Shown here: piece after piece, positions 5,535 to 59,619 of the stretch
Layout: every line of letters starts with the position of its first letter
How positions within the stretch are numbered: position 1 is the stretch's first letter
Source: Eubacteriales bacterium
GTDB taxonomy: Bacteria; Bacillota; Clostridia; Oscillospirales; CAG-272
NCBI GenBank assembly: GCA_045546615.1
Contig: JAZQDD010000020.1
Span: 972-64,971, forward strand
Direction of reading: 5' to 3'
DNA: 64,000 nt
Notes under the pieces: generated by a model
Told to the model about the DNA's origin: nothing
The model's input: the letters and a program-made list of their open reading frames with translations, nothing else
Database searches by the model: none
Program-made: the position numbers and the translations under genes

Positions 5535-5547
5535 TTTTATTAAAATG

Positions 5548-9513: not shown

Positions 9514-9760
9514 AAATAAAGACAGTGATGAAGCGAGTACTGTGAGTATCTTGTGTACAGAGAGCCGTGGGTGCTGAGACACGGCACAAGACTTATGGGA
9601 AAAACACTTCGGAGTCGGCGGAAGAAAGCTACGGCGAGTAGAACCGCACGTTCGTCGCGTAAAGACGCAGTTGAGTGGATCGCCCTTGGCGGTCAATTTG
9701 GGTGGTATCGCGGAAGCTTGCCTTTCGTCCCATGCGGGGCGGAAGGCTTTTTGTTTTTAA
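9514..9760 (+). promoter_or_regulatory. T-box riboswitch leader, specifier AAC (Asn)
   Basis: AGAGAG bulge and GGTGCTGAGA distal loop. T-box sequence AATTTGGGTGGTATCGCGG (9695-9713). Terminator GCCTTTCGTCCC-ATGC-GGGGCGGAAGGC plus TTTTT. AAC-A (9603-9606) sits directly before helix CTTC, which pairs with GAAG. Confidence 0.9.
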
Positions 9761-9804: not shown

Positions 9805-11580
9805 ATGTTGAGAACACATAATTGTAATGAAATAAGGCCCGAGCATATCGGTCAGAAGGTCGTTTTGACGGGATGGATGGATACGGTCCGCGATCACGGC
9901 GGTATTCTTTTCGTTGACCTTCGCGACCATTTCGGAACTACGCAGGTCGTTTTTTCCGATGATAAGATGCTTAACGGTATCCTCAAGGAGACCGTTGTGC
10001 TTATCGAGGGTGTTGTAACCGAGAGAAGCGAGGACACCGTAAACCCCAAGATCGAAACGGGAATGGTAGAGGTAAAGGCTGACCGCATTGAGGTTCTCGG
10101 CCCTTGCCTTTTCGGACTTCCTTTTGATATCGACGCGTCTACCGCCACCCGCGAGGACGTAAGACTTAAATATCGCTATCTTGACTTGAGAAACAGAAAG
10201 ATACACGATAATATCGTGCTTCGTTCAAAGATACTCAGCTATCTGCGTTCGCAGATGGAGGAGCTGGGCTTTGTTGAGATACAAACTCCCATTCTTACCG
10301 CATCGTCTCCTGAGGGCGCGCGCGACTATCTTGTACCCAGCCGTAAGCACAAGGGCAAGTTCTATGCGCTTCCGCAGGCTCCCCAGCAGTTCAAGCAGCT
10401 GCTTATGGTATCGGGCTTTGACCGCTATTTCCAGATAGCTCCTTGCTTCCGTGACGAGGACGCGCGTCAGGACCGTTCCCCCGGAGAATTCTATCAGCTC
10501 GACTTTGAGATGTCCTTCGCAACGCAGGAGGATGTATTCGAGGTTGCCGAGAGTGTTGTATACAATACTTTCTCCAAGTTCAGCAACAAGAAGGTCTCAA
10601 AGCCCCCCTTCAAGAGAATAACTTTTGCCGAGTCCATGCTTAAATACGGAACGGATAAGCCCGACCTCAGAAACCCGCTTGAGATCAAGGATCTTACGGA
10701 CTTCTTTGCCGCAAATGAATTTCTTACCGTAAACGGCAGAACCGTACCTTTCAAGAACAAGCTCGTTCGCGGTATCGTTGCCAATTATCTCGTTAAGAGA
10801 GACGGCGAGGGCGACGGCAAAAAGGCGTTTGAGAAAGCTATCGACACCTATTCAAGAAGCATAGGTATGAAGTTTGGTTGCGGTTATATCACGCTTGAGG
10901 ACGGCGAGTTCAAGGGCCCGATCGCAAAGTTCCTTACCGATGAGCAAAAGAAGGAGCTGTGCGAGCTTTGCGCAATCAAGGAGGGCGATTCTCTGTTCTT
11001 CATCAGCGACAACGCCTCCGTAATCAACAAGCTTGCGGGCGAAATGCGCACTTGGATAGCCAACGAGCTTGGTCTTATTAATAAGGATGCGTTTGAGTTC
11101 TGCTTTATCGTTGATTTCCCGATGTATGAGCTTAATCCCGAGACTAACAAGATCGACTTTACGCACAATCCCTTCTCCATGCCTCAGGGCGGAATGGATG
11201 CGCTTCTTAACAAAGATCCTCTTGAAATTTTTGCATACCAGTATGATATCGTCTGCAACGGAGTAGAATTATCCTCGGGAGCTGTCAGAAACCACAACCC
11301 CGAGATAATGAGAAAGGCGTTTGAGATCGCGGGCTACGGCGAGGACGACCTCAAGGCGAAATTCGGCGCACTCTACACGGCATTCTCCTACGGCGCACCG
11401 CCTCACGCGGGCATGGCTCCCGGCGTTGACAGAATGATAATGCTCATTGCCGAGGAGGAGACTATCCGCGACGTTATCGCATTCCCGCTTAACGGTAACG
11501 CGCAAGACCTCATGATGGGCGCACCCGGTGAGGTCACCGAACAACAGCTCCGCGAAGTTCATATAAAAGTAAGAGATTAA
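9805..11580 (+). CDS. aspS: aspartate--tRNA ligase (bacterial type, probably non-discriminating given the context)
   Basis: GGGAGGAAG RBS. 591 aa. Motifs FVDLRDHFG, LPQAPQQFKQLLMVSG, FRDEDARQDRSPGEFYQLD. Confidence 0.96.
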   Translation: MLRTHNCNEIRPEHIGQKVVLTGWMDTVRDHGGILFVDLRDHFGTTQVVFSDDKMLNGILKETVVLIEGVVTERSEDTVNPKIETGMVEVKADRIEVLGPCLFGLPFDIDASTATREDVRLKYRYLDLRNRKIHDNIVLRSKILSYLRSQMEELGFVEIQTPILTASSPEGARDYLVPSRKHKGKFYALPQAPQQFKQLLMVSGFDRYFQIAPCFRDEDARQDRSPGEFYQLDFEMSFATQEDVFEVAESVVYNTFSKFSNKKVSKPPFKRITFAESMLKYGTDKPDLRNPLEIKDLTDFFAANEFLTVNGRTVPFKNKLVRGIVANYLVKRDGEGDGKKAFEKAIDTYSRSIGMKFGCGYITLEDGEFKGPIAKFLTDEQKKELCELCAIKEGDSLFFISDNASVINKLAGEMRTWIANELGLINKDAFEFCFIVDFPMYELNPETNKIDFTHNPFSMPQGGMDALLNKDPLEIFAYQYDIVCNGVELSSGAVRNHNPEIMRKAFEIAGYGEDDLKAKFGALYTAFSYGAPPHAGMAPGVDRMIMLIAEEETIRDVIAFPLNGNAQDLMMGAPGEVTEQQLREVHIKVRD

Positions 11581-48400: not shown

Positions 48401-48429
48401 TTGACAAAGCAAACTCACTGTGTTAAAAT
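48401..48429 (+). promoter_or_regulatory. promoter of the Leu T-box leader
   Basis: TTGACA-N17-TAAAAT, directly after the tcdA terminator hairpin (GGGGTTTTGAAAA/TTTTCAAAACCCC). Confidence 0.7.
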
Positions 48430-48435
48430 GACTTT

Positions 48436-48700
48436 GTAAATTTCAAAAATCAAACGCAATGACGGAAAATGTGTATGTGAAAAGCGTTTCAGAGAGCCGA
48501 CGGCAGCTGTGAGTCGGTACGCGGTCACGATGCACTCTCATTCCCGAGTGGGACATTTGAAAGGGTGTCACGGATGCCACCGTTACAGGGCAGGGAGCTG
48601 TTAGGCTCTTGTAAAGGAGGTCGCGTAAGCGGCAATTTGGGTGGTACCGCGGTTTTTATCGTCCCTGAAGCAATGGCTTCGGGGGTTTTTTGTTTTTTAC
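48436..48700 (+). promoter_or_regulatory. T-box riboswitch leader, specifier CUC (Leu)
   Basis: AGAGAG bulge and GCAGCTGTGAG distal loop. T-box sequence AATTTGGGTGGTACCGCGG (48634-48652). Terminator CCCTGAAGC-AATG-GCTTCGGGG plus T-run. CTC-A (48537-48540) sits directly before helix TTCC, which pairs with GGAA. Confidence 0.9.
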
Positions 48701-48744
48701 GGCAATCCCACAAAATCAAAATTTTTTCAAGAGAGGTTCTAACT

Positions 48745-50157
48745 ATGAACGCAAACGCAAGAAGGATCAGAATATCGGACGCAACCATCCGCACGGGTGC
48801 GGGGGGCTATACCTTTAAGGAAAAGCTCGAGGTGCTTCGTATGCTTGGCAGGATAGGGGCTGACATCATCGAGCTTGGCTCTATCAGCGAGACGGAGGCA
48901 AAGAGCGATGCGCTTCTTTACCGCACCGCAAGCGCGATCCTTGACGATTGCACGCTTTCCCTCACCGTGAGTGCAGATAAGGCGGGTATAGATGCGGCTT
49001 GGGCTGCCATCGGCGGCGCAACAAGCCCGAGACTTTCCGTAGCTCTCCCCGTTTCCACCGTTCAGGCTGAATACATATATCATAAAAAGCCCGAGGCGAT
49101 GATCGCCGTCATCAGCGACACGGTATCATACGCCAAGAGTCTTGGCGCAGAGGTCGAATTCCGTGCGCTTGACTCAACAAGATGCGAGCTTGACTATCTT
49201 ATTACTGCCGCAAAGACTGCGGCGGAAGCGGGCGCGTCGGTAATTACCGTTTGCGACACATCGGGCGAGTCTCTCCCCGATGAGATAGCCGCCATCGTTT
49301 CATCTCTTCGCGCCGCGCTTGACGGTGTCAGCATCGGCGTTGAATGCTCCGATGCCATGGGACTTGCAAACGCCGCCGCCCTTGCCGCCATCGCGGCGGG
49401 AGCTGACGAGGTCAGCACCGTATTCTGCCGCGGCGGAGTATCCGTTTGCGACCTTGCCGCCGCCCTTGCGATAAAGGGTGATGCGATGGGCGTAACGCTT
49501 CGCATCGACACCACAAAGCTCTCCAGCACCGCCGACAGAGTTTCCCACCTTTCGGGCGACCGTCACGGCAAGAGCGTAAAGAGCGTAGTTTCCGCCTACG
49601 AGGATAGGGAGATCCCCACCGATGCCGATATTATAACGGTTGGTGAGGCTGCCGCCGCCATCGGATACAGCCTGACCGAGGACGACAGAGCAAAGGTATA
49701 CGAGTCTCTTCGCCGCCTCGGTGAAAAGACGGGCAGAAAGAGTATTACCGCACGTGAGCTTGACGCGATCGTTGCCGCCGATGCTTTGCAGGTGCCCCCC
49801 ACCTACCACCTTGTTTCTTACCTTATAAACAGCGGTAATACCATCAGCGCCACCGCGCAGATCACCCTTGACAAGAACGGTGAGATGATGACGGGACTTT
49901 GCGCGGGTGACGGCCCTATTGACGCCGCTTTCCGTGCTATCGAGCAGATACTCGGTTACCGCTACGAGCTTGACGATTTCCGCATCAGCTCCGTTACCGA
50001 GGGCAAGGGTGCGATGGGTGATGCGCTCGTCCGTCTGCGCTACGACGGTAAGCTCTATTCGGGAAGGGGACTTTCCACCGACATTATCGGCGCTTCCATC
50101 AGAGCCTACGTCAGCGCGCTGAACAAGATAGTATACGAACAGAACAACTCAAAATAA
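48745..50157 (+). CDS. 2-isopropylmalate/citramalate synthase-like protein with degenerate catalytic motifs (probable pseudoenzyme) and intact LeuA C-terminal regulatory domain
   Basis: GAGAGG RBS before ATG 48745 (the longer ORF from 48565 overlaps the T-box). Collinear with LeuA, but DTTLRDGEQ is DATIRTGAGG and HxH-NDLG is ECSDAMG. The C-terminus GDGPIDAAFRAIEQI...GRGLSTDIIGASIRAYVSALNK is conserved. Confidence 0.8.
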   Translation: MNANARRIRISDATIRTGAGGYTFKEKLEVLRMLGRIGADIIELGSISETEAKSDALLYRTASAILDDCTLSLTVSADKAGIDAAWAAIGGATSPRLSVALPVSTVQAEYIYHKKPEAMIAVISDTVSYAKSLGAEVEFRALDSTRCELDYLITAAKTAAEAGASVITVCDTSGESLPDEIAAIVSSLRAALDGVSIGVECSDAMGLANAAALAAIAAGADEVSTVFCRGGVSVCDLAAALAIKGDAMGVTLRIDTTKLSSTADRVSHLSGDRHGKSVKSVVSAYEDREIPTDADIITVGEAAAAIGYSLTEDDRAKVYESLRRLGEKTGRKSITARELDAIVAADALQVPPTYHLVSYLINSGNTISATAQITLDKNGEMMTGLCAGDGPIDAAFRAIEQILGYRYELDDFRISSVTEGKGAMGDALVRLRYDGKLYSGRGLSTDIIGASIRAYVSALNKIVYEQNNSK

Positions 50158-50175
50158 TAAAAGGAATTATCCAAA

Positions 50176-52707
50176 ATGAAACTTTCACTTTCCACAAACG
50201 GTTGGGAATCCTACGGCTGGGGTAAGCTCTTTGACGCGTTTCGTGATGCGGGCATCGAGGGTATCGAGCTTCACGGCATAGCTTCTCCCGAGCTTTCGGG
50301 CGCGGGCAAGCCCTTTTCCACCGAAAATATAAAGACCACCGCGCGCAGATTTTCAAACGTCGGAGTCACCGTTACCTGTGTTGATTCTCTCTCGGACATC
50401 TCTCTTACCGATCCCGACGCGATAGATGCGGCGATATATGAGATAGAGGAGTGCATTGCCGCCGCGCGTGACCTGCGTTGCAGATTTGTAAGGATCCACG
50501 CGTTTGGTGAGGATAAGGGCGAGACTACCGACGCCGCCGTGCGCCGTATGATAATGCGCCTGCTGCCCACCTCGGTAAATATGGGCGTTACGCTTCTTGT
50601 TGAGACCGCTGGCATCTACGCCGATACCGCGCGTCTTTGCGAGCTTCTCAATTCCTTTGCATCCGACAACGTTGGCGCACTTTGGGATATGCACCATCCG
50701 TACAGATATTGCGGCGAGGACCCCGAGCTTACCATACAGCGTCTCGGCGCGTACGTCAAGCACGTCCACATCCGCGATTCCGTAAAGAACGCCTCGGGCG
50801 ATGCGGACTTCTGCCTGATGGGTGACGGCGACCTTCCCGTTGCGGAAATGCTTGACGCGCTTGATTCCGTCGGCTACGGCGGATACATCAGCTACGAGTG
50901 CGCGCAGGGCGTTATCGAGGAGTTCGGTGCGGCGGAGATAGTTCTGCCTCATTTTGTAAGTTATATGCAAAAATTCGGCAAAAGCCAGCCGTCGATGTCA
51001 CGCCTGCCCGAAAACCGTTCAAGAACGGGACGTTTCGTTTGGCAGAAAAACGAGCTTATCGACCTCACCTTCCCGCAGGTGCTTGACAAAATGGTTGAGG
51101 AATTTCCCGACCAGCTCGCGTTCAAGTACACCACGCTCGATTACACCCGCACCTACTCGCAATTCCGTGACGACGTTGACAGCTTTGCACGCGCCCTCAT
51201 CGCTATGGGTGTTGGTGTTGGCGATCACGTTGCTATCTGGGCGACCAACGTCCCCGCGTGGTTTATCACCTTCTGGGCGGCTACCAAGATAGGCGCGGTG
51301 CTTGTTACCGTAAATACCGCGTACAAGATACATGAGGCGGAATATCTTTTCCGTCAGTCCGATACACACACGCTCGTTATGGTGGAGAGCTGCCGTGATT
51401 CCGATTACCGCGCCATCATCAACGAGATTTGCCCCGAGATCGCCTCGACTCCCTCGGGTCAGCCGCTTCATTGCAAACGGCTTCCGTTTTTGCGCAACGT
51501 CGTTACCGTCGGTTTTTCGATGGCGGGCGGCGTGACGCTTGAGGATGCTATACGAATGGGCGAGAGCGTTCCCGCCGAGGAAGTATCAAGGCGTGCCGCC
51601 GCAGTCCGTCCCGACGACGTGGCGAATATGCAGTACACCTCGGGAACTACGGGCTTCCCCAAGGGCGTTATGCTCACTCACCGCAATATAGTAAATAACG
51701 GCAAATGTATAGGCGACAGAATGGACCTTTCCACCGCCGACCGTATGATGATACAAGTGCCGATGTTCCATTGCTTCGGAATGGTGCTGTCAATGACGTC
51801 GTCAATGACGCACGGCGCAACGCTCCTTCCCATGCCGTATTTCAGCCCCAAATCCTCGCTTGCGTGCGTTCAGGCAGAGCGCATAACCGTATTTAACGGC
51901 GTTCCCACCATGTTTATCGCTATGCAGTCGCATCCCGACTTTGCAAAGACTGATTTTTCGTCCGTCCGTACGGGCATCATGGCAGGCTCTAACTGCCCTG
52001 CCGACCTTATGCTCAGCGCAACAAAGACGATGAATATGACCGAGATCATAAGCGTCTACGGTCAGACCGAGGCATCCCCCGGCTGTACTATGAGCTGTGT
52101 TGACGATCCGCTCGAGGCGCGTGTAGGCACTGTTGGTCACGCCTTCCCGAACGTTGAGTGCAAGATAATCGATCCCGAAACGGGACTTGATCTGCCCGAC
52201 GGCGAGAACGGTGAGTTCGTTGCGCGCGGATATAACATAATGAAGGGCTATTACAAGATGCCCCGCGCAACGCGTGAGGCAATTGATAGCGACGGCTGGC
52301 TTCATACGGGTGACATCGCCTGCCGCGATGCTGACGGAAACTATCGCATCACCGGCAGACTCAAGGATATGATAATCCGCGGCGGAGAGAATATCTACCC
52401 CCGCGAACTTGAGGAATTCCTCTTTACGCACCCCAAGGTCAGCGATGTTCAGGTCGTAGGCGTTCCCGACAAGAGATACGGCGAGGAATGTATGGCTTGG
52501 GTAATTCCGAAGGACGGCGAAACTCTCACCGCTGAGGAACTTCGCGAGTATTCGCTGGAGCGCATGGCTCGCCATAAAGTGCCGAGATACATCCATATCT
52601 GCTCGACCTTCCCGATGAACGATGCGGGCAAGATACTCAAATACAAGATGCGCGAGTGGGGTGCCGAGATGATAGCAGACCCAGAAAATCCCCTCTCCAA
52701 GCAGTAA
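50176..52707 (+). CDS. fusion protein: xylose-isomerase-like TIM barrel (N-terminal) plus AMP-dependent acyl-CoA ligase (C-terminal)
   Basis: 843 aa. The first ~280 aa look like a sugar-phosphate isomerase/epimerase fold (GIEGIELHG, LLVETAG, HVHIRD). The remainder has MQYTSGTTGFPKGVMLTH, YGQTE, LHTGD, GRLKDMIIRGGENIYP. Confidence 0.85.
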   Translation: MKLSLSTNGWESYGWGKLFDAFRDAGIEGIELHGIASPELSGAGKPFSTENIKTTARRFSNVGVTVTCVDSLSDISLTDPDAIDAAIYEIEECIAAARDLRCRFVRIHAFGEDKGETTDAAVRRMIMRLLPTSVNMGVTLLVETAGIYADTARLCELLNSFASDNVGALWDMHHPYRYCGEDPELTIQRLGAYVKHVHIRDSVKNASGDADFCLMGDGDLPVAEMLDALDSVGYGGYISYECAQGVIEEFGAAEIVLPHFVSYMQKFGKSQPSMSRLPENRSRTGRFVWQKNELIDLTFPQVLDKMVEEFPDQLAFKYTTLDYTRTYSQFRDDVDSFARALIAMGVGVGDHVAIWATNVPAWFITFWAATKIGAVLVTVNTAYKIHEAEYLFRQSDTHTLVMVESCRDSDYRAIINEICPEIASTPSGQPLHCKRLPFLRNVVTVGFSMAGGVTLEDAIRMGESVPAEEVSRRAAAVRPDDVANMQYTSGTTGFPKGVMLTHRNIVNNGKCIGDRMDLSTADRMMIQVPMFHCFGMVLSMTSSMTHGATLLPMPYFSPKSSLACVQAERITVFNGVPTMFIAMQSHPDFAKTDFSSVRTGIMAGSNCPADLMLSATKTMNMTEIISVYGQTEASPGCTMSCVDDPLEARVGTVGHAFPNVECKIIDPETGLDLPDGENGEFVARGYNIMKGYYKMPRATREAIDSDGWLHTGDIACRDADGNYRITGRLKDMIIRGGENIYPRELEEFLFTHPKVSDVQVVGVPDKRYGEECMAWVIPKDGETLTAEELREYSLERMARHKVPRYIHICSTFPMNDAGKILKYKMREWGAEMIADPENPLSKQ

Positions 52708-52790
52708 TATTTGTAAATTCAAAAAATATAGTGCATTTTGCGCTGTAATGTGATATAATTGACTTAACCTAAAACTTAAGGAGAAAAACT

Positions 52791-53855
52791 ATGGAAATCA
52801 AGATTACAAGAACTACAACCCCCAAGGCAAAGCCCGCAAAAGGTCAGGCTCTCGGCTTTGGCAAGATATTTACCGACCACATGTTTATGATGAATTACAC
52901 CGAGGGCAAGGGCTGGCACGATGCCAGAATCGAGCCTTTCCACAATATCGAGCTTTCCCCTGCCTGCGTGGTATTCCACTACGGTCAGGAGATGTTCGAG
53001 GGACTCAAGGCTTATCGCGGAGTTGACGGCAAGGTTCGCCTTTTCCGCCCCGAGATGAACGCCCGCCGTACCAACGCTTCGAACAAGCGTCTTTGCATCC
53101 CCGAGCTTCCCGAGGATATGTTCGTAGAGGCTGTTCGCGCAGTCGTTGACGTTGATGCGGATTGGATACCCACCGACGACGGCACTTCGCTCTACATCCG
53201 CCCCTTCATCATCGGTACTGATGAATTCCTCGGCGTTGCCCCCTCAAAGACCTACCTTTTCTGCGTAATTCTTTCTCCCTCGGGAGCATACTACGCTGAC
53301 GGACTCAAGCCCGTCGGCATTTGGATCGAGGACGATTACGTAAGAGCCGTTCGCGGCGGTATGGGCTTTGCAAAGACGGGCGGTAACTACGCTTGCTCCC
53401 TCGCGGCTCAGGTAAAGGCGCATGACGACGGATATTCTCAGGTACTTTGGCTTGACGGCGTTGAGAGAAAGTACATTGAGGAAGTTGGCGCGATGAACAT
53501 CTTCTTCAAGATCGGCGGCAAGGTAGTAACTCCCATGCTCAACGGCTCTATCCTCCCCGGTATCACCCGTGACAGCGTTCTTACGCTCTGCCGCGCGTGG
53601 GGACTTGACGTTGAGGAGCGCAAGATCTCCGTTGACGAGCTTATCGAGGCTCAAAAGAACGGTACGCTCGAGGAAGTTTTCGGAACGGGTACTGCCGCAG
53701 TTATCTCTCCCGTCGGCAAGCTCCGCTACGTTGACGAGGTAATGACCATCGGTGACGGCTCTATCGGCCCGCTCAGCCAGAAGCTCTATGATACCGTAAC
53801 GGGTATCCAGTGGGGCAAGGTAGAGGACACCATGGGCTGGACACAGACCGTCTGA
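52791..53855 (+). CDS. ilvE: branched-chain amino acid aminotransferase
   Basis: AAGGAG RBS. 354 aa. Contains FEGLKAYR, a class IV aminotransferase pattern, GGNYA, EVGAMNIFF, PGITR. Confidence 0.93.
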   Translation: MEIKITRTTTPKAKPAKGQALGFGKIFTDHMFMMNYTEGKGWHDARIEPFHNIELSPACVVFHYGQEMFEGLKAYRGVDGKVRLFRPEMNARRTNASNKRLCIPELPEDMFVEAVRAVVDVDADWIPTDDGTSLYIRPFIIGTDEFLGVAPSKTYLFCVILSPSGAYYADGLKPVGIWIEDDYVRAVRGGMGFAKTGGNYACSLAAQVKAHDDGYSQVLWLDGVERKYIEEVGAMNIFFKIGGKVVTPMLNGSILPGITRDSVLTLCRAWGLDVEERKISVDELIEAQKNGTLEEVFGTGTAAVISPVGKLRYVDEVMTIGDGSIGPLSQKLYDTVTGIQWGKVEDTMGWTQTV

Positions 53856-53856
53856 T

Positions 53857-54573
53857 ATGGAGTCGATCCTTAACAGAAACGCCAGAGTCACGCTTTTTGC
53901 GGGACACTACGGAAGCGGAAAAAGCACGGCGGCAATAGCGTTTGCCGCCGCGCTCCGCGCCAAATTTCCGCACGAAAGGCTGACTCTTGCAGACCTTGAT
54001 ATAGTAAATCCGTATTTCCGTACGACCGACTGTGCCGAGCTGCTTCGCTCGCTTGGTGTGGAGGTGGTCGCATCGGATTTTGCAGGTACTAACGTCGACG
54101 TTCCCGCCCTGCCGGGCGCGGCGTACTCGCTTATTGAAAGGCGAGACGTACGCTCAATTATCGACGTCGGCGGTGATGACCGCGGCGCACTTGCGCTCGG
54201 ACGTTACGTTCCCGCCCTCAAGGAGGAGGGAAGCTACGATATGCTTGCCGTTATCAATCCCTACCGTCCGCTGACAAGAAATGCCGCGGACACCGCAGAG
54301 GTGCTTCGCGAGATAGAGGCGGCGTGCGGCTTGGCTTTTACGGCGATACTTAACAATCCCGCCCTCGGTGTTAACACCACCGCTGACAGCGTGGTGTCGG
54401 CAACGCCCTACGCGCTTGCCGTCAGTGAGGCTATGGGCATTCCCGTGGCGTTCACCATGGCGCGCGAGGATCTGTGCGGCGAGCTTGCGACGAGAAGCGC
54501 AGAGCTGCCCGCAGACGGGCTTTTGCTGCCGTTTGCCCATAAAATCGCCCACGGCGGCATAGTTAACGGATAA
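53857..54573 (+). CDS. P-loop NTPase of unknown function (MinD/CooC-like SIMIBI type)
   Basis: Start is 2 nt after the ilvE stop. Walker A-like FAGHYGSGKST and a Walker B-like IIDVGGDD. Confidence 0.65.
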   Translation: MESILNRNARVTLFAGHYGSGKSTAAIAFAAALRAKFPHERLTLADLDIVNPYFRTTDCAELLRSLGVEVVASDFAGTNVDVPALPGAAYSLIERRDVRSIIDVGGDDRGALALGRYVPALKEEGSYDMLAVINPYRPLTRNAADTAEVLREIEAACGLAFTAILNNPALGVNTTADSVVSATPYALAVSEAMGIPVAFTMAREDLCGELATRSAELPADGLLLPFAHKIAHGGIVNG

Positions 54574-54580
54574 AATTGTA

Positions 54581-54609
54581 AAAAAACGGCTTTATAGAGC
54601 CGTTTTTTT
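54581..54609 (+). terminator. rho-independent terminator
   Basis: AAAAAACGGCT-TTATAG-AGCCGTTTTTTT. Confidence 0.85.
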
Positions 54610-54691
54610 GCAAAAAACTGTTGAACTAACGGGAATTATAATATATAATAATATAATAAGTTAAATTTTACATACCGAAAGGGAAATAAAA

Positions 54692-54901
54692 ATGGTAAAA
54701 ATCAGCTTCAGAACCGACAGATGTAAGGGCTGCGGGCTTTGCGTTACCGCCTGCCCCAAAAAGCTGCTCGCTATGGACAGCGAGAAGATAAACGCGCAGG
54801 GCCATCACCCTGCCACCATCACCGACGCATCCGCTTGCATAGGCTGTGCTTCATGCGCACTTATCTGCCCCGATTGCGTCATTACGATCATCAAGGAATA
54901 A
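54692..54901 (+). CDS. 2-oxoacid:ferredoxin oxidoreductase delta subunit (2x[4Fe-4S] ferredoxin)
   Basis: 69 aa. CKGCGLCVTACP and CIGCASCALICP. Confidence 0.9.
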   Translation: MVKISFRTDRCKGCGLCVTACPKKLLAMDSEKINAQGHHPATITDASACIGCASCALICPDCVITIIKE

Positions 54902-54913
54902 AGGAGAGAGAAA

Positions 54914-55975
54914 ATGGCAGAAAAGGTACTTATGAAAGGTAACGAGGCTATTGCCGAGGCTGCTATCGCCGCAGGCTGCCGCCATTATTTCGGTTACCCC
55001 ATCACCCCCCAGACAGAAATTGCCGCATATATGGCAAAGCGTATGCCCAAGATAGGCGGCGTTTTCCTTCAGGCTGAAAGCGAAGTTTCCGCTGTTAATA
55101 TGGTCATCGGTGCGGCTTCCGCAGGCGTGCGCGTTATGACCTCGTCCTCCTCCCCCGGAATATCCCTTAAGAGCGAGGGACTTTCCTACATGGCAGGATG
55201 CGACCTGCCCGCACTCATCGTCAACGTTCAGCGCGGCGGCCCGGGTCTTGGCGGTATCCAGCCCTCCCAGTCCGACTATTTCCAAGCTACCCGCGGCGGC
55301 GGACACGGTGACTATCACATGCTCGTTCTCGCTCCCGACTCCGTGCAGGAAATGGCTCAAATGACCATTCAGGGCTTTGCCCTTGCTGAGAAATACCGTA
55401 TGCCCTGTATGCTTTTGGCAGACGGTACTATGGGACAGATGATGGAGCCCGTTGAGCTTCCCGACACCGCACCCGAAATGGTGGAGAAGCCTTGGGCGCT
55501 CACGGGTACGGGACTTTCTCGCAAGCACAATATCATAAACTCCCTCTCTCTTACTCCGGACGAGCTTGAGAGATGGAATATCGACAGATACGCAAGATAT
55601 GCAAAGGTCGAGGCTGACGAGGTAATGTACGAGGAGTATCTTACCGAGGATGCCGACGTTTGCGTAGTTGGCTACGGCATCGCCGCAAGAGTTGCGCGTA
55701 ACGCCGTTAACGCCGCACGCGCCAAGGGCATCAAGGCAGGAATGTTCCGCCCCATCACCCTCTGGCCCTTCCCCAAGGCAGCACTTAACAAGCTCGCAAC
55801 CACCTGCCGTGCGTTCATTTCCGTTGAGCTTTCCATGGGACAGCTTATCGAGGATGTTGAGCTTGCTATCCGTTGCAGCCGCCCCGTAACTCTTTGCAAC
55901 CGTACGGGCGGTATGATCCCCTCACCCGAGCAGGTGCTTGCCTCTATCGAGGAAGCCGCCGCAAAACTTAATTAA
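54914..55975 (+). CDS. 2-oxoacid:ferredoxin oxidoreductase alpha subunit
   Basis: GGAGAG RBS. 353 aa. MKGNEAIAEAAIAAGCRHYFGYPITPQTEI. Confidence 0.9.
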   Translation: MAEKVLMKGNEAIAEAAIAAGCRHYFGYPITPQTEIAAYMAKRMPKIGGVFLQAESEVSAVNMVIGAASAGVRVMTSSSSPGISLKSEGLSYMAGCDLPALIVNVQRGGPGLGGIQPSQSDYFQATRGGGHGDYHMLVLAPDSVQEMAQMTIQGFALAEKYRMPCMLLADGTMGQMMEPVELPDTAPEMVEKPWALTGTGLSRKHNIINSLSLTPDELERWNIDRYARYAKVEADEVMYEEYLTEDADVCVVGYGIAARVARNAVNAARAKGIKAGMFRPITLWPFPKAALNKLATTCRAFISVELSMGQLIEDVELAIRCSRPVTLCNRTGGMIPSPEQVLASIEEAAAKLN

Positions 55976-55989
55976 GGAGGATGCTGAAA

Positions 55990-56739
55990 ATGGCAGTTGT
56001 ATTTGAAAGACCTCACTCCCTTGTTGACGTGCCGATGCACTATTGCCCCGGTTGCGGTCACGGTATAATTCACCGCCTTGTTGCAGAGGCTATCGACAGC
56101 CTCGGTATCGAGGGTAAGACCATTGGCGTTGCCTCGGTTGGTTGCTCGGTATTTTCCTATAATTATTTCAACACCGACATGGTTCAGGCGGCTCACGGAC
56201 GCGCTCCCGCCGTTGCTACGGGCGTAAAGCGTGCTAACCCCGAGAACATCGTTTTCACCTATCAGGGTGACGGCGACCTTGCCGCTATCGGTACTGCGGA
56301 GACTGTTCACGCCGCCGCAAGAGGTGAGAACATCACCATTATCTTTGTAAACAACGCAATTTACGGTATGACGGGCGGTCAGATGGCTCCCACCTCTCTC
56401 CCCGGTCAGATCACGCAGACCTCGCCCTACGGACGTGACGTTAACACCGTCGGATACCCCGTAAAGGTCAGCGAGATGCTTTCCCAGCTTGACGGCGCGG
56501 CTTATATCGAGCGCGTTGCTATCAACAACACAAAGAACATTCGCGCCGCCGCAAAGGCTATCAAAAAGGCGTTTACTTATCAGACCGAGGGCAAGGGTTT
56601 TACTCTTATCGAGGTAGTTTCCACCTGCCCGACCAACTGGGGACTTACTCCCGAAAAGTCTATGGCATGGCTTGAGGAGAATATGCTTCCTTACTATCCT
56701 CTCGGCGTATACAAGGATAAGTACGCCGACAAAAACTGA
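55990..56739 (+). CDS. 2-oxoacid:ferredoxin oxidoreductase beta subunit (TPP-binding)
   Basis: AAGGAGG-N9-ATG at 55990 (the ATG at 55981 abuts the RBS). Contains CPGCGHG, GDGD, NNAIYGMTGGQ. Confidence 0.9.
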   Translation: MAVVFERPHSLVDVPMHYCPGCGHGIIHRLVAEAIDSLGIEGKTIGVASVGCSVFSYNYFNTDMVQAAHGRAPAVATGVKRANPENIVFTYQGDGDLAAIGTAETVHAAARGENITIIFVNNAIYGMTGGQMAPTSLPGQITQTSPYGRDVNTVGYPVKVSEMLSQLDGAAYIERVAINNTKNIRAAAKAIKKAFTYQTEGKGFTLIEVVSTCPTNWGLTPEKSMAWLEENMLPYYPLGVYKDKYADKN

Positions 56740-56754
56740 TAGGGGGTATTGACT

Positions 56755-57291
56755 ATGACAAAGAATATTCTTATTGCCGGCTTTGGTGGACAGGGCGTGC
56801 TTTTCACTGGTAAATTTATCGCTTACGGTGCGCTTATCGAGGGCAAGGAGCTTAGCTGGCTTCCTTCCTACGGCCCTGAAATGCGCGGCGGAACTTGCAA
56901 TTGCTCCGTTATCGTCAGCGACGAGCCCGTAGGCTCTCCCATTGTTAACGAGCCTGATGTGCTTATTGCTATGAACCGCCCCTCGCTTGATAAATTTGAG
57001 GACTCTGTTGTTCCCGGCGGTGATATTTATATCGACTCCTCCCTTGTTGACAGAGAGGTACGCCGTACCGACGTAAACGTTCATTATATTCCCGCTACCC
57101 GCCTTTCCACCGAGCGCGGCTTTGACGGTATCGCCAATATGATACTGCTTGGAAGCGTTATCAAGGGAAGCGGCGTTATCAAGGAGGAGACTATCCCCGC
57201 GGCTATGTCGAAGGTAGTTTCCGCAAAGCGTCAGAATCTTTTTGATTTCAATATCCGCGCACTGCAGCTTGGCGCGGAAGTGCTTAAATAA
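56755..57291 (+). CDS. 2-oxoacid:ferredoxin oxidoreductase gamma subunit
   Basis: [32 protein letters not shown]. Confidence 0.9.
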
Positions 57292-57301
57292 TAGGTGTAG
57301 T

Positions 57302-57865
57302 ATGGCTAAAACACATTCCGAAGAGCTTCGTGAGATAGCCGCACGCCTTCAGGATATGCGCGAGATATGCGAGATATCCGAGGAGGAAATGGCGCAAAAG
57401 CTTGGCGAAACGCTCGCAGACTATCAGTCCTACGAGCGCGGCGAAAGAGATTTTCAGATCAGCTTTCTCTGCGAGGCGGCAAACGTTCTCGGTATTGACG
57501 TGCTTGATCTTATGAGCGGTACGTCGCCAACTCTTTCAGTTTGCACCGTTGTTAAAAAAGGTCAGGGCTTTAACGTTGACCGTAACAACGCGTATAAATA
57601 TAAGCACCTTGCGTTCCCCTTCCGCAACAAAAAGGCAGAGCCCTTCCTTGTTACCGTTGAGCCTAACGATTCCATCCCCGCCCTCAACTCCCACCCCGGT
57701 CAGGAATTTGACTATATGGTGTCGGGTGCGATGAAGCTCTTTATAGGTGAGGAAGAATATCTTCTTGAGGCGGGAGACAGCGCGTATTTTGACTCTTCCA
57801 CACCCCACGCGCTCAAAGCCGTGGGCGACACTGCCGCAGAGTTTTTGGCAATAGTTATCAAGTAA
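57302..57865 (+). CDS. XRE HTH plus cupin-domain transcriptional regulator
   Basis: ATG 57302 follows the gamma-subunit stop. The HTH is in the first 70 aa. C-terminal cupin motifs HPGQEFDYMVSG...YFDSSTPHA. Confidence 0.85.
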   Translation: MAKTHSEELREIAARLQDMREICEISEEEMAQKLGETLADYQSYERGERDFQISFLCEAANVLGIDVLDLMSGTSPTLSVCTVVKKGQGFNVDRNNAYKYKHLAFPFRNKKAEPFLVTVEPNDSIPALNSHPGQEFDYMVSGAMKLFIGEEEYLLEAGDSAYFDSSTPHALKAVGDTAAEFLAIVIK

Positions 57866-57874
57866 GGACGTAAA

Positions 57875-59569
57875 ATGGCTATTTATGAAAAATATCTGGG
57901 GCGCTCAAGGGACAGCTTTTCCTCGCTGAAGGATGCGCAGGAGAACTTGAAGTTCAGTTGCCCAGATGACTTTAATTTCGCGTATGACGTTATAGACGAG
58001 CTTGGCAGAACCAAACCCGACAAAACGGCTATGGTCTGGGTATCAAAGAATTGGGAGGAGAAGATAATAAGCTTCTCCGAGCTTTCGCGTGAGTCCGACC
58101 GTGCCGCCGCGTTTCTTTACGGACTCGGCATTCGTCGCGGCGACAGAGTGCTTCTCGTTCTCAAGCGCCATTACTATTTCTGGTATCTGCTCCTCGGACT
58201 TCACAAGATAGGTGCGGTTGAGGTACACGCTACGTCCATGCTCACGGCAAAGGACTATGTTTACCGCTGTAACGCCGCAAAGGTCAAGGCGGTCATAGTC
58301 TCCTGCGACGATGGCTGTACCGAGCATTTTGACGGCGGTATGGGCAAGTATGAAACTGTCGAACACCGGTTCGTTATCGGCGGCAACGCACCCGACGGCT
58401 GGCGTGATTTCAACGCCGAGTTCGAATCAACCCCCGCCGAATGGAAAAAGCCCGACTACCTTGCGGATTTCTCTGCCGACGAGACGATGATGCTCTGCTT
58501 CTCGTCGGGAACTACGGGATATCCAAAGCTCATTTCCCACGATTACCGCTACCCCCTCGGTCATATTATGACGGGTGTTTTCTGGCATCGCTGTGTTGAC
58601 GGCGGACTCCATCTGTCCGTGTCCGACACGGGCTGGATGAAGGCTTTCTGGGGTAAGATGTACGGTCAGTGGTTTGCCGAAAGCGCGATAATGGTCTATG
58701 ATTTTGACCGCTTTAACGGAGACGATATACTTAAAATAGTGGAAAAATACAAGGTCACCACCTTCTGTGTTCCCCCCACTATGTACCGCATGATACTGCT
58801 CAAGGACGTTGAAAAGTACGACCTTTCATCCATCGTGCATTGTTGCACGGCGGGTGAGGCACTCGGCCCTGAAATTTATAACGAATGGCTCACGCGCACG
58901 GGACACAAGATATACGAGGGCTTCGGACAGAGCGAAACTCCCGTTATTATTGCCTCGCTCGCGCCGTATACCGAGCCTGTACCGGGTGCGGCGGGACTTC
59001 CCGTTCCGGGTTATGACGTTCAGATAGTGGACGAGGACTGCAATCCCTGTCCGCGCGGTGTAAACGGCGAGATATGCGTTCGTGTGGACAGCATGGCGAC
59101 TCGCCCATACGGTCTGCTTTCGAGCTATAATTTCAACGAGGAGGAGACTGCAAACGCCTACCGCGACGGCTTCTATCACACGGGAGACATTGCCTACCGC
59201 GATGAAAAGGGTATGTTCCGCTACGTTGGACGTAACGATGATATAATCAAATCATCGGGTTACCGTATAGGCCCGTTCGAGATAGAGTCGGTAATGATCG
59301 AGCACCCCGCGGTGCTGGAGGTTGCGGTTACGGGCGTTCCCGACGCTCTGCGCGGCTTCCTTGTTAAGGCAACGGTCGTTCTGCGCGAGGGATATACACC
59401 CTCTGACGAGCTTGTAAAGGAGCTTCAGAACTATGTTAAGGCCAACACAGCACCGTACAAGTACCCTCGCATTATCGAGTTTGTCGATGCGCTTCCCAAG
59501 ACCTTCAGCGGAAAGATACGCCGTACGGAGATACGTCAGCGTGATGCTGAAAAGTATGCTAATAAATAA
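57875..59569 (+). CDS. medium-chain-type AMP-forming acyl-CoA synthetase
   Basis: 564 aa. FSSGTTGYPK, GFGQSET, YHTGD, GRNDDIIKSSGYRIGPFEIES, and a C-terminal SGKIRR. Confidence 0.9.
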   Translation: MAIYEKYLGRSRDSFSSLKDAQENLKFSCPDDFNFAYDVIDELGRTKPDKTAMVWVSKNWEEKIISFSELSRESDRAAAFLYGLGIRRGDRVLLVLKRHYYFWYLLLGLHKIGAVEVHATSMLTAKDYVYRCNAAKVKAVIVSCDDGCTEHFDGGMGKYETVEHRFVIGGNAPDGWRDFNAEFESTPAEWKKPDYLADFSADETMMLCFSSGTTGYPKLISHDYRYPLGHIMTGVFWHRCVDGGLHLSVSDTGWMKAFWGKMYGQWFAESAIMVYDFDRFNGDDILKIVEKYKVTTFCVPPTMYRMILLKDVEKYDLSSIVHCCTAGEALGPEIYNEWLTRTGHKIYEGFGQSETPVIIASLAPYTEPVPGAAGLPVPGYDVQIVDEDCNPCPRGVNGEICVRVDSMATRPYGLLSSYNFNEEETANAYRDGFYHTGDIAYRDEKGMFRYVGRNDDIIKSSGYRIGPFEIESVMIEHPAVLEVAVTGVPDALRGFLVKATVVLREGYTPSDELVKELQNYVKANTAPYKYPRIIEFVDALPKTFSGKIRRTEIRQRDAEKYANK

Positions 59570-59572
59570 AAT

Positions 59573-59602
59573 AAGGGGTAGAAACGCGAGTTTCTACCCC
59601 TT
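59573..59602. terminator. bidirectional terminator
   Basis: AAGGGGTAGAAAC-GCGAG-TTTCTACCCCTT between convergent genes. Confidence 0.85.
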
Positions 59603-59619
59603 ATTTTATACTTGGAGAT

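Follow-up and report, generated by a model that had tools for sequence, protein, structure and literature searches.

A leucine T-box-led gene cluster of gut Clostridia that probably salvages branched short-chain fatty acids into branched-chain amino acids

Here we describe a cluster of ten genes, g1 to g10, in a 64,000-nucleotide (nt) stretch of DNA from an Eubacteriales bacterium (assembly GCA_045546615.1, contig JAZQDD010000020.1, positions 972 to 64,971; hereafter the window), which in all likelihood serves to make branched-chain amino acids out of salvaged branched short-chain fatty acids. An earlier note on this DNA had listed the ten genes and read them as a route of CoA activation, reductive carboxylation and transamination under the control of tRNA-Leu. 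All ten genes were recovered in the same order and at the same coordinates, and the three-step reading is supported by the conservation of the set, by the specifier codons of T-box leaders and by the agreement of these codons with the ligase clades. That is, a branched acid would react with ATP and CoA to yield the acyl-CoA, a step carried out by g2 for isovalerate or by g10 for 2-methylbutyrate and/or isobutyrate. The oxidoreductase g5–g8 would then convert the acyl-CoA with CO2 and reduced ferredoxin to the 2-oxoacid, which would finally be transaminated by IlvE (g3) to Leu, Ile or Val. Entry into the route would be gated by an attenuation T-box that senses uncharged tRNA-Leu. Leu is the most likely product, and Ile and Val are probably also made by the cluster. 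Many relatives possess three units under Leu, Ile and Val T-boxes, each with its own ligase, sharing one oxidoreductase and one ilvE.

Fibre-degrading Clostridia of the rumen and gut need such acids, called 'isoacids' and commercially fed to cattle, and the genes by which they synthesize the amino acids are poorly assigned. In the 1960s, labelling work of Allison and Bryant reportedly traced isovalerate into leucine in rumen bacteria; with their co-workers, they are said to have worked out the physiology of reductive carboxylation by labelling and enzyme assay, leaving genes and regulation unassigned. The cluster matches the isoacid pathway of rumen anaerobes in its three steps and its ecological setting, the rumen and hindgut. 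However, that pathway came without a gene assignment, whereas a conserved, T-box-controlled gene set can now be proposed for it. In a 2020 study of Prevotella bryantii, the reaction leading from branched acids to amino acids was described as 'not proven yet' (PMC7709123).

To compare the cluster with its relatives, one genome per species was scanned for homologues of g1 (up to 588 genomes), and the best 80 loci were retained and viewed with 10 kb flanks. Nearly all stem from rumen or gut metagenome-assembled genomes (Oscillospiraceae, Acutalibacteraceae, Ruminococcus and unclassified Clostridia); locus L035, which has the triple Leu/Ile/Val layout described below, belongs to a cultured rumen isolate, Erysipelotrichaceae bacterium NK3D112. 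Gene g2 directly follows g1 in 78/78 loci with room for it, the oxidoreductase lies within 10 kb in 25 of the 35 loci that extend 9 kb or more to either side, and the whole set is present in 23 loci. Four gene orders were found: the order of the window; one or two copies of g9-g10 followed by g4, the oxidoreductase, ilvE, g1 and g2; a divergent form of the latter; and g1 and g2 followed by two copies of g9-g10 and the rest. The earlier note had let its reading depend on gene order in relatives, and the set is indeed kept in dozens of species in these four arrangements. The recurrence of the same partners in four shuffled orders indicates selection on co-location beyond mere inheritance, and chance co-location was rejected. 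In three genomes, a single-chain oxidoreductase of the PFOR/NifJ type (~1170 amino acids, aa) directly follows g1-g2 and replaces the four-subunit enzyme (L012, 14076–17615; L019, 14157–17660; L072, 12110–15625). The appearance of an oxidoreductase of different architecture at this place links the ligase independently to an oxidoreductase. In L012, the gene next to the single-chain enzyme encodes a LivJ-like periplasmic binding protein.

T-boxes are a well-known class of riboswitches and switch on genes through which more of their cognate amino acid becomes available. In the relatives, they were located by motif search, and the register of the specifier was set by eight Rfam alignments (the window and seven others). 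Among the aligned leaders, five preceding g1 carry CUC or CUG, one preceding g9-g10 carries AUC and two preceding g9-g10 carry GUC or GUA. Overall, the g1 leader displays one of the Leu codons CUC and CUG in 51 of 51 cases (50 loci of relatives plus the window). In many relatives separate T-boxes also precede the g9-g10 units, and these specify Ile in 17–18 cases, Val in about 20 and Leu in one (L039). When the g10 homologues are arranged in a neighbour-joining tree, the ligases sort accordingly: the Val clade comprises 22 members (19 with GUA or GUC, three for which no T-box was found), and the Ile clade 23 (18 with AUC, one with CUC, one unread and three for which none was found). Ligase clade and specifier thus coincide in 37 of the 38 readable cases, namely in 19/19 for Val and 18/19 for Ile. 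The ligase of the window belongs to a third clade (A) of ten members, which lack a T-box of their own and are sister to the Ile and Val clades. Three ligases, each under a T-box for a different branched-chain amino acid and located beside a shared oxidoreductase and ilvE, strongly suggest that each ligase feeds its own amino acid. Conversion of the cognate branched acid into the cognate amino acid appears to be the only simple explanation of this layout, and the specifier may be read as a built-in annotation key telling which ligase serves which amino acid.

In the window, where all coordinates refer to the forward (+) strand, the cluster is headed by the best promoter site of the region (48401–48429; TTGACA, 17 nt spacer, TAAAAT with TG extension; 11/12 matches). 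The leader downstream (48450–48669) matches the full T-box model RF00230 of Rfam with 104.9 bits (E = 4e-22; gathering score 93). Alignment to the covariance model positions the specifier CUC (Leu) at 48537–48539, followed by an A, as had been claimed from the letters, and the T-box sequence GGGUGGUACCGCG, containing UGGN, at 48639–48651. An intrinsic terminator that is alternative to the antiterminator is located at 48661–48696, consisting of an 11-pair hairpin (48661–48686) and a T run, and the minimum-free-energy fold of the leader includes this hairpin. Terminator hairpin and U run identify the leader as a T-box acting by transcription attenuation, in which read-through would be induced by uncharged tRNA-Leu. 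The arrangement resembles the Leu T-boxes of ilv-leu and leuA operons in Firmicutes, sharing riboswitch class, specifier and a first gene that looks like leuA. Unlike in those operons, the 'leuA' of the cluster encodes a putative pseudoenzyme, the genes that follow are predicted to serve salvage, and, in relatives, parallel Ile and Val T-boxes precede paralogous ligases.

The gene closing the cluster, g10 (57875–59569), encodes an AMP-forming acyl-CoA synthetase. It had been labelled 'medium-chain-type', a description that has to be revised, as its nearest relative is the short branched-chain ligase MbcS: this is the top NCBIfam family of g10, with a score of 394 bits that remains under the cut-off of 850, making the protein MbcS-like but not an equivalog. 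MbcS selectively activates 2-methylbutyrate and isobutyrate, uses isovalerate poorly and feeds FabH with 2-methylbutyryl- and isobutyryl-CoA (PMC10026030). This preference fits the assignment of MbcS-like ligases to Ile and Val and of g2, a ligase of another class, to Leu. We therefore propose from these sequence relationships that g10 is a ligase for 2-methylbutyrate and/or isobutyrate. The substrates of Staphylococcus aureus MbcS likewise match the Ile and Val T-boxes of the g10 family; however, the S. aureus enzyme operates in lipid synthesis and has no T-box, and most relatives of g10 differ from it by an N-terminal HTH-cupin fusion. In the window, these N-terminal domains are encoded separately by g9 (57302–57865; Pfam HTH_3, an XRE-type helix-turn-helix (HTH), plus Cupin_2). 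A single open reading frame of ~755 aa comprising HTH, cupin and ligase takes the place of g9 and g10 in the Ile and Val clades, as confirmed with Pfam in L029 and L035. Our guess is that g9 probably acts as a sensor or repressor for the MbcS-like ligases.

The presumed ligase of the Leu unit, g2 (50176–52707; 843 aa), is a fusion of a xylose-isomerase-like TIM barrel (AP_endonuc_2) with an AMP-binding ligase. The barrel covers about residues 1–285 and scores 93.3 with PF01261, against a cut-off of 31.1. Sequence context leads us to propose that g2 is an isovalerate-CoA ligase. Within the g2 family, identity amounts to 70–77% in the ligase part and to 31–47% in the TIM part. The TIM domain of the window has its metal ligands intact at all four of the usual positions (E143, D171, H198 and E241); among 66 family members, 15 carry E143K, 10 carry D171N and 10 carry E241V. 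When the TIM domain was used by itself to search for homologues, only 21 proteins came back, most of them truncated. As to its function, a docking or otherwise non-essential catalytic module would be our guess. In 18 loci, though not in the window, a gene for an Amidohydro_2 protein (PF04909; ~268 aa) is located directly 3' of g2 (e.g. L029, 13900–14712; L033, 8951–9757; L036, 13891–14697) and is apparently part of the Leu T-box unit in these loci.

The first gene, g1 (48745–50157), had been described as 'LeuA-like'. This holds for its Pfam domains, HMGL-like and LeuA_dimer (5.7e-32), and for its fold, but the catalytic residues are gone. Its best score with a LeuA model is 264 bits as compared to a cut-off of 532, and no LeuA equivalog cut-off of NCBIfam (517 upwards) is reached. 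Alignment with solved LeuA structures reveals that, in the window, RDGEQ is changed to RTGAG and HxH to ECS. None of the 78 family members has Asp/His at the three metal-ligand positions, and the substrate Arg is retained in 27 of them. By comparison, the C-terminal LeuA allosteric domain is well kept, its mean top-residue frequency being 0.79 versus 0.54 in the barrel, with a nearly invariant GDGPIDAAF loop across the 78 sequences. The AlphaFold model of g1 (pLDDT 88) superimposes its barrel on 3ewb with a TM score of 0.92, and its full-length structural matches include the Leu-bound LeuA of M. tuberculosis (3FIG). A sequence search of the PDB with the regulatory domain alone yielded nothing informative. 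NCBI labels the homologues 'hypothetical' or 'regulatory domain-containing'; one source has '2-isopropylmalate synthase'. Judged by its sequence, g1 is a LeuA without catalytic function in which the allosteric domain that binds leucine has been preserved, the loss of metal ligands being family-wide. Thus, the allosteric domain known from LeuA and CimA is kept in g1, but on a non-catalytic barrel and in a gene that is always paired with a ligase gene. The invariable pairing with g2, the lost catalysis and the conserved allosteric domain lead us to guess that g1 is most likely a leucine sensor or a regulatory partner of the g2 ligase.

Extending this idea, each salvage ligase might have its own amino-acid sensor: the pseudo-LeuA would dock on the TIM domain of g2 to exert feedback inhibition by leucine, and the HTH-cupin::ligase fusions would represent enzyme and repressor in one, similar to BirA. 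We regard this extension as tentative and rather doubtful. If true, a pseudoenzyme from the de novo pathway, kept together with its ancestral Leu T-box, would regulate the salvage pathway replacing it.

The genes for the remaining steps are located between the two ligases. The product of g3 (52791–53855) is a branched-chain amino acid aminotransferase, IlvE, by NF009897 (502 bits; cut-off 307) and TIGR01123 (412 bits; cut-off 250). Genes g5 to g8 (54692–57291) together encode a four-subunit 2-oxoacid:ferredoxin oxidoreductase, composed of a 2x[4Fe-4S] ferredoxin-like delta subunit (g5, 54692–54901), an alpha subunit with POR_N and PFOR_II domains (g6, 54914–55975), a thiamine pyrophosphate (TPP)-binding beta subunit with a TPP_enzyme_C domain (g7, 55981–56739) and a gamma subunit with a POR domain (g8, 56749–57291). 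The alpha subunit matches the VorB model NF005507 with 532.7 bits, exceeding the cut-off of 399. VOR enzymes are well known, and the delta-alpha-beta-gamma architecture with TPP and 2x[4Fe-4S] subunits is that of the VOR/2-oxoacid:ferredoxin oxidoreductase family; however, the enzyme of the cluster is by score much nearer to bacterial Kor/Oor-type models (337 and 255 bits) than to archaeal VOR (82 bits). Its putative specificity for branched-chain substrates derives from one NCBIfam subfamily name and from the genomic context.

Also unlike in known VOR systems, a gene for a SIMIBI-class NTPase is located upstream of the oxidoreductase, that is, g4 directly precedes the delta subunit gene in 40 of 41 loci. 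In the window, g4 (53857–54573) encodes a P-loop NTPase with the Walker A motif GHYGSGKS and has no Pfam match. The family counts more than 8000 matches of ~225–240 aa with an invariant GHYGSGK ... DxGGDDRGA signature. Pfam has no model dedicated to it, although the CbiA and ParA/Mrp models pick up some of the homologues. A sequence search of the PDB with g4 gave no match, and its AlphaFold2 model places it at class level only: the best structures are the NG domains of Ffh and FtsY and ATPase-type HypB, at TM scores of only 0.5–0.57. As a weak inference, g4 may be an assembly factor of the oxidoreductase.

Four other explanations of the cluster deserve consideration. The genes could supply branched acyl-CoA primers for branched-chain fatty acids of the membrane, amino acid synthesis being secondary or absent. 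Indeed, the top family of g10, MbcS, feeds FabH in lipid synthesis (PMC10026030), and rumen bacteria do incorporate branched acids into lipids (PMC7709123). Against this, Leu, Ile and Val T-boxes tie each ligase to amino-acid supply and not to lipid, the ligases share their loci, and often their transcription unit, with the oxidoreductase and ilvE, and no fab genes recur in the neighbourhood. A primary role in lipid synthesis is hence unlikely, although branched acyl-CoAs could serve both lipid and amino acid synthesis. Alternatively, the cluster might be catabolic, yielding branched acyl-CoAs and acids by oxidative fermentation of Leu, Ile and Val; aminotransferases and VOR/POR-type oxidoreductases do run in the oxidative direction in proteolytic Clostridia. 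T-boxes, which activate when the cognate amino acid is scarce, would be the wrong signal for such a function; AMP-forming ligases are effectively irreversible towards the CoA ester and would waste ATP; and neither a phosphotransacylase/kinase pair nor an ADP-forming synthetase recurs nearby. On these grounds, a catabolic role was judged very improbable and rejected.

The two further alternatives concern the Leu unit. The presence of HMGL-like and LeuA_dimer domains and the name '2-isopropylmalate synthase' given to one homologue could suggest that g1 is a working synthase of ordinary de novo Leu synthesis and that the other genes are unrelated. However, the protein scores only about half of the LeuA cut-off, it has lost the metal ligands and, in most members, the substrate Arg, none of leuB, leuC and leuD is nearby, and g1 is always paired with the ligase; an active LeuA is thus extremely improbable and was discarded. 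Finally, the Leu unit could start from a precursor other than isovalerate, which would be processed by g1 and the TIM domain and, in 18 genomes, by the Amidohydro_2 protein. The intact metal-ligand set of the window's TIM domain, the amidohydrolase gene after g2 and the restriction of such extras to the Leu unit are compatible with this idea. Nevertheless, we consider it quite unlikely: the TIM metal ligands are replaced in 10–15 of the 66 family members, the domain is far less conserved than the ligase, g1 lacks catalytic residues, and the amidohydrolase is missing from the window and from most loci. Taken together, salvage of branched short-chain fatty acids into the cognate amino acids remains the preferred explanation. 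It should be added that we infer from sequence which substrates are used, in which direction the flux runs and what g1, the TIM domain, g4 and g9 do.

Several observations weigh against the salvage reading. The ligase of g2 falls in a generic FadD/4CL-like group. The beta, gamma and delta subunits of the oxidoreductase pass no specific NCBIfam model, and the nearest named enzymes act on 2-oxoglutarate. A homologue of g4 located elsewhere (L081) adjoins an aconitase gene and no oxidoreductase, and we can only guess at the accessory roles considered for g1, g4, g9 and the TIM domain. For most specifiers, the reading was done with a script or visually, following the register of the Rfam alignments and without a covariance model. 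Moreover, g10 of the window has no T-box of its own, and the presence of a presumed Ile/Val ligase in a Leu-led cluster is unexplained. Eight loci (L005, L014, L016, L018, L020, L021, L027 and L043) share the gene order of the window but have no T-box; Rfam gave no match in the six of them that were checked. Lastly, a hairpin and promoter-like sites split g1–g4 from the oxidoreductase genes in the window, and the Leu T-box may consequently miss the carboxylation step.

This last point, the reach of the T-box, had already been raised as a caution, rightly so for the genome of the window. The terminator previously placed at 54581–54609 was found again as a hairpin at 54580–54609 that is flanked by A7 and T7 and thus resembles a bidirectional terminator. 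It is followed by a promoter-like site ahead of the oxidoreductase genes (54621–54649; TTGAAC, 17 nt, TATAAT; 10/12 matches). The possible promoter suggested at 52731–52759 stands less firmly: its extended -10 element TGATATAAT (52751–52759) is perfect, but its -35 element has only 2/6 matches and the promoter scan did not list the site. These internal features are common to the window and L001 only, the proteins of which are 88–100% identical, whereas in the other genomes of the same order both spacers are short and featureless. By these comparisons, the internal promoter and terminator are lineage-specific. A single-operon state does exist in relatives, since in L002 and L023 the Leu T-box is followed by ten uninterrupted genes. 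In L039, a Leu (CUC) T-box at 2829 heads g9::g10, g4, the oxidoreductase, ilvE, g1 and g2, and in L064 a Leu (CUC) T-box at 5544 heads g4, the oxidoreductase, ilvE, g1 and g2. Both layouts show that the carboxylation step is under Leu control in some genomes.

What the T-box-less group has instead, ~70–82 nt upstream of g1, is a conserved promoter (TTGACTTT...TATATATAAT) and, downstream of it, the palindrome ACTTATAGTGCATAAGT. This suggests protein-based control in these genomes, with ACTTATAGTGCATAAGT as the likely operator, perhaps for g9. Even when up to three mismatches were allowed, the palindrome was not found in the window. Its core, the 10-mer TATAGTGCAT, is present at 52727–52736, 64 nt upstream of ilvE, where it coincides in part with the -35 region of the possible promoter ahead of that gene and is conserved in L001. 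As TATAGTGCAT is no more frequent in the window than expected by chance, it remains a lead only.

The earlier note could not match the organization to any described operon. Likewise, a search of the full-text literature, which included few subscription journals, retrieved no description of the cluster, of T-boxes on such ligases, of a pseudo-LeuA or of such a use of the LeuA_dimer domain. What is known is the pathway and the riboswitch class; what appears to be new is the widespread genetic organization together with its uncharacterized accessory proteins. The cluster would provide a gene-level account of a nutritional trait of the rumen known for 60 years, in the form of a concrete gene set that is widely conserved, in up to several hundred species genomes. 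Ligase specificity, the prediction of auxotrophies from metagenomes and models of cross-feeding become directly testable. The pseudo-LeuA, the TIM-barrel::ligase and HTH-cupin::ligase proteins and the oxidoreductase-linked NTPase are candidates for new regulatory or assembly biology.

The cluster is closed by a terminator hairpin at 59573–59609, read from the sequence. The genes on either flank are unrelated to it: RecG, an amidase and ThiF are encoded upstream, and YmdB, the S-component of an energy-coupling factor (ECF) transporter and a BspA-type leucine-rich repeat protein downstream. No tRNA genes are present in the 64,000 nt. Elsewhere in the window, a second T-box at 9516–9735 (118 bits) has the specifier AAC (Asn) and precedes a gene (9805–11580) for an aspartyl-tRNA synthetase of class II that contains a GAD domain, a pattern expected for the formation of Asn-tRNA via a non-discriminating aspartyl-tRNA synthetase. 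A Gut-1 RNA (RF01706) was detected at 2803–2876 with 64 bits, and another in L061 (1293–1368; 76 bits), which is consistent with an origin from gut metagenomes.

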